Below, piece by piece: positions 23,493-24,440 of a DNA stretch of 25,462 nucleotides (within the stretch, counting starts at the first letter, position 1; every line of letters starts with the position of its first letter). The stretch is taken from the NCBI GenBank assembly GCA_031283585.1, contig JAITBP010000008.1, positions 1 to 25,462 on the forward strand. Reading direction: 5' to 3'. A program made the translations under genes and the position numbers. Under the pieces are notes generated by a model that worked only from the letters and a program-made list of their open reading frames with translations, ran no database searches and was not told where the DNA came from. The DNA is from Puniceicoccales bacterium. Its GTDB lineage: Bacteria; Verrucomicrobiota; Verrucomicrobiia; Opitutales; LL51.

Positions 23493-24440
23493 TCATATAT
23501 TTCTTATAACATCCATGTTCGTCGAATGCGACGACTGTAATATTTGTTTCATCAGGGACATAAATGTATCCCTGGCTTTCTGTGCATTTTTTACACCACT
23601 ACCTGCCGAATCTGCTAGATTATCGATAAGTTTTATCATGGCATCCTTTTCTTTTACATCTGCTTTTAGCTCATTTTCCTTTTTACCGAAGATGGCCTGG
23701 GCAACCTTCATTCCGGTACCTACGAGACTTCCGGCTATACCTCCATAGGTATCCCGTGCAGAATTTATCGTATCATAATCTGACTTTGTGTAAGGTTTTA
23801 CTTCCACCTTGGCCTGGGGCATATTCTGAATTTCCTGGGTAGTTTGGGTATGAGAAATTCCGTAATCCTTCTGATGTTTTGGGGCAGCGAGCTTTGCAGC
23901 AACTGCACCCACAGCCATGGTGGTCGCTGTGGTAGCTAGTCCTGTCCAGGCCTGCATCATCAATTTATTGTAAGCCATCTGCGCCTGCTTCATCATCATC
24001 TCGTTCCTCTCATTAGAAAACTTAAGACTGATTCGACTAAGCTCAAGCTGATTTTCACGTTCTATGGTTCTTTGATCGGTGGTTGCAACTATCATGAGGA
24101 CCATTATCTTACACATCATTGTACCCAGTGAACTCATACTGTTTATATTTTCGGTATCCATGGTCCCTAGGCCGGTAATCAGCTCATTGATCATGTTCGA
24201 TCTCTTGGGACTGGATGCCATGGATGGTGCTTCGATGGAAATCCTGAGGCTGGTGTCGTTGTTAATGTCGGTTAGCCATTTCAAATCAAATATTCGGCCA
24301 TCGACAATAAGAGTTTCTGTCAGTTTATTCAATGTGGGTGCATCCATACCCGCCGAGTTATCACCAGACACACGCTTCAATCCAGAAGTGTTAGAATTTT
24401 TCAATGGTTCTACACCTCCCTCATTGCCTATTCCAGCCAT
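23493..24440 (-). CDS. Hypothetical protein with YopD/PopD (SctB)-like T3SS translocator architecture
   Basis: 315 aa with no Sec signal and a polar, disordered N-terminus. A hydrophobic patch is followed by a charged motif (LGTMMCKIMVLMIVATTDQRTIERENQ; compare PopD LLLILFRIAQKARELGVLQRDNENQ, from memory). There is a central TM-like AWTGLATTATTMAVGAVAAKLAA and a Gly-rich amphipathic YGGIAGSLVGTGMKVAQAIFG. The C-terminal helix is ADVKEKDAMI...FMSLMKQILQSSHSTNMDVIRNI (compare YopD AEVKEKE...[24 protein letters not shown], from memory). Confidence 0.45.
   Translation of the reverse strand: MAGIGNEGGVEPLKNSNTSGLKRVSGDNSAGMDAPTLNKLTETLIVDGRIFDLKWLTDINNDTSLRISIEAPSMASSPKRSNMINELITGLGTMDTENINSMSSLGTMMCKIMVLMIVATTDQRTIERENQLELSRISLKFSNERNEMMMKQAQMAYNKLMMQAWTGLATTATTMAVGAVAAKLAAPKHQKDYGISHTQTTQEIQNMPQAKVEVKPYTKSDYDTINSARDTYGGIAGSLVGTGMKVAQAIFGKKENELKADVKEKDAMIKLIDNLADSAGSGVKNAQKARDTFMSLMKQILQSSHSTNMDVIRNI

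Follow-up and report, generated by a model that had tools for sequence, protein, structure and literature searches.

A probable, highly divergent type III secretion translocator gene split from its chaperone operon in termite-gut Puniceicoccales

Class II chaperones are dedicated to the translocators that belong to a type III secretion system (T3SS). In three reference plasmids, of Yersinia, Aeromonas and Photobacterium, the chaperone gene is followed by those of the major (SctE) and the minor (SctB) translocator, in the order lcrH-yopB-yopD, acrH-aopB-aopD and sycD-sctE-sctB (loci L017, L018 and L023). The Chlamydiae, intracellular members of the Planctomycetes-Verrucomicrobia-Chlamydiae (PVC) superphylum, have scattered T3SS genes and two sets of translocator paralogs with class II chaperones, scc2-copB-copD and scc3-copB2-copD2. 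Non-flagellar T3SS (NF-T3SS) are known in Verrucomicrobia (PMC3459982), and the fast evolution of translocon proteins usually hides them from sequence searches in groups other than Proteobacteria (Abby and Rocha 2012, PMC3459982). Here we describe a gene of a Puniceicoccales bacterium, at 23493..24440 on the minus strand of the first 25,462 nucleotides of contig JAITBP010000008.1, the whole of which we call the window. The gene (hereafter the target) has an ATG start and encodes 315 amino acids (MDR2735694.1, LBB20_02550), and GenBank annotates its product as a hypothetical protein. An original prediction, made from the DNA letters, placed the open reading frame correctly and took its product for an orphan YopD/PopD-like translocator among type IV pilin-like genes. 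We consider it likely that the target encodes a highly divergent T3SS translocator, the counterpart of SctB by position, and that it has been split from its chaperone operon in these termite-gut Puniceicoccales.

The window is a contig of a metagenome-assembled genome (MAG) of Puniceicoccales from the gut of a lower termite, and the bin codes of related MAGs also point to lower termites, for example Glyptotermes and Neotermes cubanus (PMC11707648). Among the Verrucomicrobia of termite guts, the 'Nucleococcus cluster' comprises symbionts that live in the nucleus or the cytoplasm of gut flagellates and have genomes of about 1 Mb (PMC8204192). We infer that the MAG of the window belongs to this cluster, and its bacterium is probably associated with a flagellate. 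Our literature search returned no report of a T3SS in Puniceicoccales or Nucleococcus, and none on CP095464, the complete genome of a relative that is used below.

A chaperone-linked unit in related Puniceicoccales

A search of 5.8 billion proteins returned three close orthologs of the target, all from Puniceicoccales and 59-66% identical to it. Wherever the contig shows it, their genes stand in the order pilin, target, pseudopilin, tRNA-Gly, accB, accC, der. A profile search of 1.84 billion representatives added more distant relatives that match over their full length (P0005, E=2e-28; P0006, 1e-23; P0008, 4e-22; P0010, 5e-18). Together with the target these form class A, proteins of 290-337 aa that share SGLKRxSGDxxxGxDA, then SLGDxMCELMxLMI..IERE, and a C-terminal HDxxMxIIRN. 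Class B paralogs are more distant, with E-values from 1e-11 to 1e-4 in the same search. One further match, P0009, was rejected as a family member. It is a 1727-aa, beta-rich tandem-repeat protein, and its E-value of 6e-21, summed from 15 weak repeat matches, is therefore spurious.

The setting of class A genes in the relatives supports our reading. In every relative with enough flanking DNA (L004, L005, L007, L009, L011-L016 and L024, the last being the complete genome CP095464.1 of 878,461 bp), the class A gene is the last of a unit in which a giant protein is followed by a tetratricopeptide repeat (TPR) protein of 163-195 aa, a protein of 505-840 aa and the class A protein. The TPR protein matches TIGR02552, the model of the SycD/LcrH class II chaperone, over its full length at E=4e-24 to 4e-28, and the JGI name for these proteins is LcrH/SycD chaperone. 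This is the gene order of the three reference plasmids. The family holds the minor-translocator (SctB) position of a canonical operon of chaperone, major and minor translocator in related Puniceicoccales, a conclusion that the shared order and the chaperone matches support.

In the window itself, the target is as isolated as the original prediction had described it. Neither an SctE gene, a class II chaperone nor a needle-tip gene is adjacent, and none was found anywhere in the 25 kb, where Pfam and NCBIfam scans revealed no T3SS gene. A position directly downstream of a class II chaperone and a major translocator is found for homologs elsewhere, not for the target in the window. At the level of the genome, however, the claim of an orphan very probably fails. 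The original prediction had proposed looking for a class II chaperone elsewhere in the genome, and a probable one was found: an alignment search with the chaperone gave 32 homologs, including P0050 (MDR2735319.1), which is encoded on a contig of 141 kb and scores 105.2 bits against TIGR02552 (curated cut-off 104.8). P0050 comes from sample SRR14710909, as the target does, and its accession lies 375 from MDR2735694.1 (gene number about 510 by locus tag). P0052 (MDR0351730.1) lies 17 accessions from P0003 (MDR0351747.1), an ortholog of the target, and both come from the same two samples. The tetranucleotide correlation is 0.96 for the pairs of target and chaperone contigs, compared with 0.64-0.90 for other Puniceicoccales loci. 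Very probably, the MAG that holds the target also carries a chaperone and an SseC-like gene on another contig. At loci L019-L021 the giant protein is followed by the chaperone and an SseC-like protein (383 or 556 aa), and then by mnmE on the other strand; the slot of the class A gene is empty.

The giant gene stands at the head of every translocator unit, directly upstream of the SycD/LcrH chaperone, and its product has no Pfam match. Where complete, it encodes 6,276-9,803 aa, and in L020, where it runs to the contig end, at least 5,467 aa (positions 1-9956 in L024, 1-7972 in L007, 1-7070 in L009, 15386-21281 on the minus strand in L004 and 1-9979 in L020). In CP095464.1 this single gene takes up about 3% of a 0.88-Mb chromosome. 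The protein is possibly a T3SS substrate or an adhesin.

Downstream of class A in the relatives there is usually a convergent class B gene, and secG. Class B proteins have 290-470 aa (L004 10001-11281, L005 10001-11263, L006 10001-10963, L009 10896-12125 minus strand, L024 14068-15129 minus strand), and their genes adjoin secG and a gene for a TPR-like protein of 152-171 aa. By analogy with Chlamydia, class B may be a candidate second translocator set. The TPR-like protein was considered as a second chaperone and rejected, since its N-terminus is lipoprotein-like in L011 and the matches of several copies are weak and BamD- or LapB-like.

Protein layout and similarity to translocator families

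The layout that the original prediction saw in the protein is borne out by our analysis. There is no Sec signal, the N-terminus being without a Sec-type hydrophobic region. A hydrophobic patch (residues 102-120) is followed by IERENQ, and after it come a hydrophobic segment (residues 164-186) and a C-terminal helix that is amphipathic. In the N-terminal part of class A, conservation is highest in the block of residues 17-37 (24330..24392, minus strand; NTSGLKRVSGDNSAGMDAPTL), in which K22, S25, G26, D27, G31 and D33 are invariant in nine class A sequences whose overall identity is just 25-34%. From this conservation, the block is a candidate for a T3SS signal or for a region that binds the chaperone. 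Residues 102-131 (24048..24137, minus strand) comprise the patch MSSLGTMMCKIMVLMIVAT and the motif IERE(N/M), with a Kyte-Doolittle value of 1.66. They correspond to the family signature SLGDxMCELMxLMI...IERE, and S104, E127 and R128 are nearly invariant in alignments of 15 and of 27 sequences. The segment at residues 164-186 (23883..23951, minus strand; AWTGLATTATTMAVGAVAAKLAA) is rich in Ala, Gly and Thr, has a Kyte-Doolittle value of 1.33 and is a candidate membrane-inserting helix; A164 is invariant in the family alignment, and W165 inside class A. The C-terminal amphipathic helix spans residues 258-314 (23499..23669, minus strand), with a hydrophobic moment of 1.6-1.86, compared with 1.8 in YopD; in family members, this is the part that pairs with the C-terminal portion of the Pfam SseC profile.

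The dN/dS of the target is 0.09-0.13, the same as that of accB and der, and we therefore take the gene to be functional and under purifying selection. It could also be argued that the target is a decaying, non-functional remnant of a broken translocator operon, since it is separated from that operon and the genomes of these lineages are reduced, to about 0.9-1 Mb (PMC8204192). However, the frame is intact and full-length in all three complete orthologs, the dN/dS of about 0.1 is like that of the housekeeping neighbours, and the signature motifs are kept, so that decay is a highly improbable explanation.

Similarity to a known translocator family was found with Pfam SseC (PF04888), which is the top and the sole recurrent family among the 27 members, 4 of which match it at E<=0.01 (best 9.6e-6). 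The matches are always C-terminal, 130-150 residues being aligned with the end of the profile. They span residues 149-314 in the target (E=0.42), 147-294 in the L011 protein (E=9.6e-6) and 141-290 in P0008 (E=1.9e-4). When 10 member sequences were reversed, none matched SseC at E<=1. Judged by these controls, the SseC signal appears specific, though sub-threshold. The middle gene of the unit also matches SseC (L020, 5.6e-5; L013, 7.6e-5; L019, 0.003; L007, 0.0029), and this neighbouring gene, of 383-840 aa, would be the better candidate for SctE.

The original prediction had argued instead from three landmarks that the protein would share with YopD and PopD. Its YopD strings are accurate, the YopD sequence that we used being 100% identical to pYVe227 yopD. 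The resemblance itself is not significant, because reversed profiles score alike and the Pfam YopD family never matches. BLASTP between the target and YopD gives E=0.34, and the 'ADVKEKD' landmark is not conserved in other family members. AopD and VopD were taken from annotated plasmids, so that Yersinia, Aeromonas and Photobacterium served as references. The hhalign alignment of the family with YopD and with the YopD/AopD/VopD profile is colinear, lines up all three landmarks and reaches z of about 9 against column shuffles. We nevertheless rejected this likeness in view of the reversed profiles; for helical proteins, column shuffling makes too permissive a null.

Several results weigh against placing the target among the translocators. 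PF05844 (YopD), a comparison that the original prediction had proposed, is silent for the target at E<=10 and for the relatives scanned at E<=1, and no NCBIfam model, the SctB-type ones included, matches the target. In hhalign, the family scores 29-30 against YopD/AopD/VopD (P about 0.003) and reversed profiles score 24-31, and 29-30 is therefore the background level of helical, low-complexity proteins. Family hidden Markov models (HMMs) compared with YopB/AopB/VopB and YopD/AopD/VopD gave nothing above reversed sequences. Against SseC, the target scores 10.6 bits (E=0.42) and the best relative 25.8 bits, compared with a gathering threshold of 30.2 bits. As all SseC scores lie under that threshold, membership of SseC is not formally established, and no match of any family member reaches a curated family threshold. 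In some relatives, P0008 among them, the central segment has only weak hydrophobicity. AlphaFold2 models from alignments of 4 and of 15 sequences have an all-helical secondary structure at low confidence (pLDDT 35 and 42.5), and searches of PDB sequences with the target protein and with the family profile returned only chance matches (terminase, ATP synthase b). Finally, the assignment of the chaperone to the same MAG is inferred from accession proximity, the shared sample and composition, not from the assembly record.

These points raise the question of whether the family consists of class II chaperone and T3SS substrates that do not form pores but act, for example, as secreted effectors, as tip or regulatory proteins, or in support of the giant protein. 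The missing threshold-level matches to translocator families and the weak central segment of relatives such as P0008 would fit such a role, as would an operon that always starts with a giant protein and the existence of a second paralog class. However, the gene order and sizes match those of chaperone, major and minor translocator exactly (compare L017, L018 and L023), the sole recurrent and orientation-specific similarity is to SseC-like translocators, and it is to translocators that class II chaperones are dedicated. We consider a role other than pore formation to be rather unlikely.

Pilin-like neighbours and the split of the operon

As originally predicted, the target is followed on the same strand, after 29 nt, by a gene with a prepilin N-methylation motif (PF07963, E=6.5e-6). 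This pseudopilin-like gene (22801..23463, minus strand) encodes 220 aa that are GspH-like at the N-terminus only, and the matches to TIGR02532 and TIGR01708 are likewise confined to that end. The two divergent pilin paralogs on the other side were also correctly recognized. The first (24693..25193, plus strand; 166 aa) is a pilin- or pseudopilin-like gene with a GspG-like N-terminal half (TIGR01710, E=3.2e-6; PF07963, E=2.5e-4). The second (25290..>25462, plus strand) is cut by the end of the window, and its translation resembles the first, with 63% identity over 46 aa. Between the target and the pilin genes lie 252 bp of divergent intergenic DNA (24441..24692) with a candidate sigma-70-like promoter at 24474..24447 on the minus strand, a weak one, with 9 of 12 consensus positions, which is no better than expected from shuffled sequence.

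This neighbourhood could mean that the target has been recruited to a pilin/pseudopilin system, like a type II secretion system (T2SS) or a type IV pilus, with which it would be co-transcribed and by which it would be exported or displayed. All three genomes known from the clade keep the two-gene unit, with a gap of 20-29 nt (20 nt in L001 and L003), no terminator is predicted between the two genes on the coding strand, and their co-transcription is plausible from this arrangement. We had assumed that pilins are abundant in Verrucomicrobia and that the adjacency is meaningless. This assumption was rejected, as there are only five pilin-like genes in 282 kb of these genomes, all five at the single target locus, so that pilin abundance does not account for the neighbourhood. 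On the other hand, the adjacency is confined to one clade and thus amounts to one evolutionary event, and no pilin gene was found within 10 kb of the other family members, which all belong to operons linked to a chaperone. The target has neither a Sec nor a Tat signal, and a prepilin motif, present in all three scanned neighbours, was not found in it (PF07963 and TIGR02532 are silent, and there is no G-F-x-x-x-E-type motif). The chaperone and the SseC-like partner have very probably been kept in the same genome. The pseudopilin, which is 42-43% identical to its orthologs with a dN/dS of 0.25-0.44, has an evolutionary rate about three times that of the target. Recruitment to a pilin system is, in our judgement, improbable. 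Quite improbable, too, is a functional hybrid in which a pseudopilus presents or exports a T3SS-type pore-former, or in which the pseudopilin replaces the needle-tip protein.

We instead favour a translocator gene that has changed its place. With the class A slot empty in the chaperone loci of this clade, the simplest reading is that one rearrangement in the ancestor of the clade moved the minor-translocator gene to the locus of the pilin genes, tRNA-Gly and accB. The tRNA-Gly(CCC) gene, which ARAGORN places at 22726..22799 on the plus strand, is convergent with the pseudopilin gene and ends 2 nt from its stop codon on the opposite strand. It occupies the same site in L001 and L003 and may mark the breakpoint of the rearrangement. 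In L013, der (engA) lies at 19800-20840, with about 9 kb between it and the class A gene of a canonical locus, and the distance from der to the target in the window is 3 kb. With der near both genes, the relocation was possibly a local rearrangement, not a long-range move.

The other genes of the window are housekeeping genes (ychF, lpxB, hupB-like, mlaE, tpiA, dxs, glgP, fabD, der, accC and accB), together with a few open reading frames that match no family or only weakly. The largest of these, of 1063 aa (13042-16233, plus strand), has no Pfam or NCBIfam match and a syntenic counterpart of 1069 aa in L001, beside pfkB and fabD. Three others, of 181 aa (5266-5811, minus strand), 139 aa (1066-1485, plus strand) and 366 aa (11739-12839, plus strand), have no Pfam match at E<=0.001, and for the last of them NCBIfam gives a weak match, to YtvI, a membrane protein (E=0.0017). 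All three are unlike the chaperone and the SseC-like proteins of the related loci.

A relocated translocator and its known counterparts

Most likely, then, the target is a gene of a known kind that has changed its location, and not part of a new pilus-linked system. The original prediction had left two options, of which the stray T3SS substrate gene is favoured by our results, and delivery by a pilus or a T2SS is unsupported. We suggest that the class II chaperone of the other contig would hold the protein in the bacterial cytoplasm, possibly through the block at residues 17-37, and that the T3SS would export it by way of its N-terminus, which is unstructured. With the SseC-like protein as its partner, it would insert the segments at residues 102-120 and 164-186 into the host membrane and so contribute to a translocon pore. 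The place beside the pseudopilin gene would be the inherited outcome of one rearrangement, with no functional coupling.

If this is correct, a small family of proteins that have so far been called hypothetical marks a probable T3SS translocon of termite-gut Puniceicoccales, consisting of two paralog classes, an SseC-like partner and a SycD/LcrH chaperone. That a complete genome of 0.88 Mb has retained the unit suggests a central role for contact-dependent protein delivery in these symbioses. With its operon split, the clade offers a natural case for studying how the expression of a translocator is coordinated when its chaperone is unlinked.

Among described proteins, the minor translocators of the SctB type (YopD, PopD, AopD and VopD) are closest to the target in architecture. 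They are of similar size (286-306 aa, compared with 315 aa), and the target shares their polar N-terminus without a signal peptide, the hydrophobic patch with a charged R-E/D-x-E-N stretch after it, the central hydrophobic segment and the C-terminal amphipathic helix. In the relatives, the class A gene directly follows those of the SycD/LcrH chaperone and the major translocator, an order shared with pYV, pAsa5 and the Photobacterium plasmid. However, there is no statistically supported sequence similarity to SctB proteins, and the target itself is unlinked from the chaperone and the major translocator and stands beside pilin-like genes. With the SseC family (SseC, YopB, PopB and EspD; SctE) there are recurrent matches in the forward orientation that are colinear with the C-terminus of the profile, but the target is shorter and covers just the C-terminal half. 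The Chlamydial units may offer a further parallel: both groups belong to the PVC superphylum, and they would have in common an intracellular life, T3SS genes scattered over the chromosome and two sets of translocator paralogs with class II chaperones. The unit of the Puniceicoccales differs from them in being headed by a giant gene.

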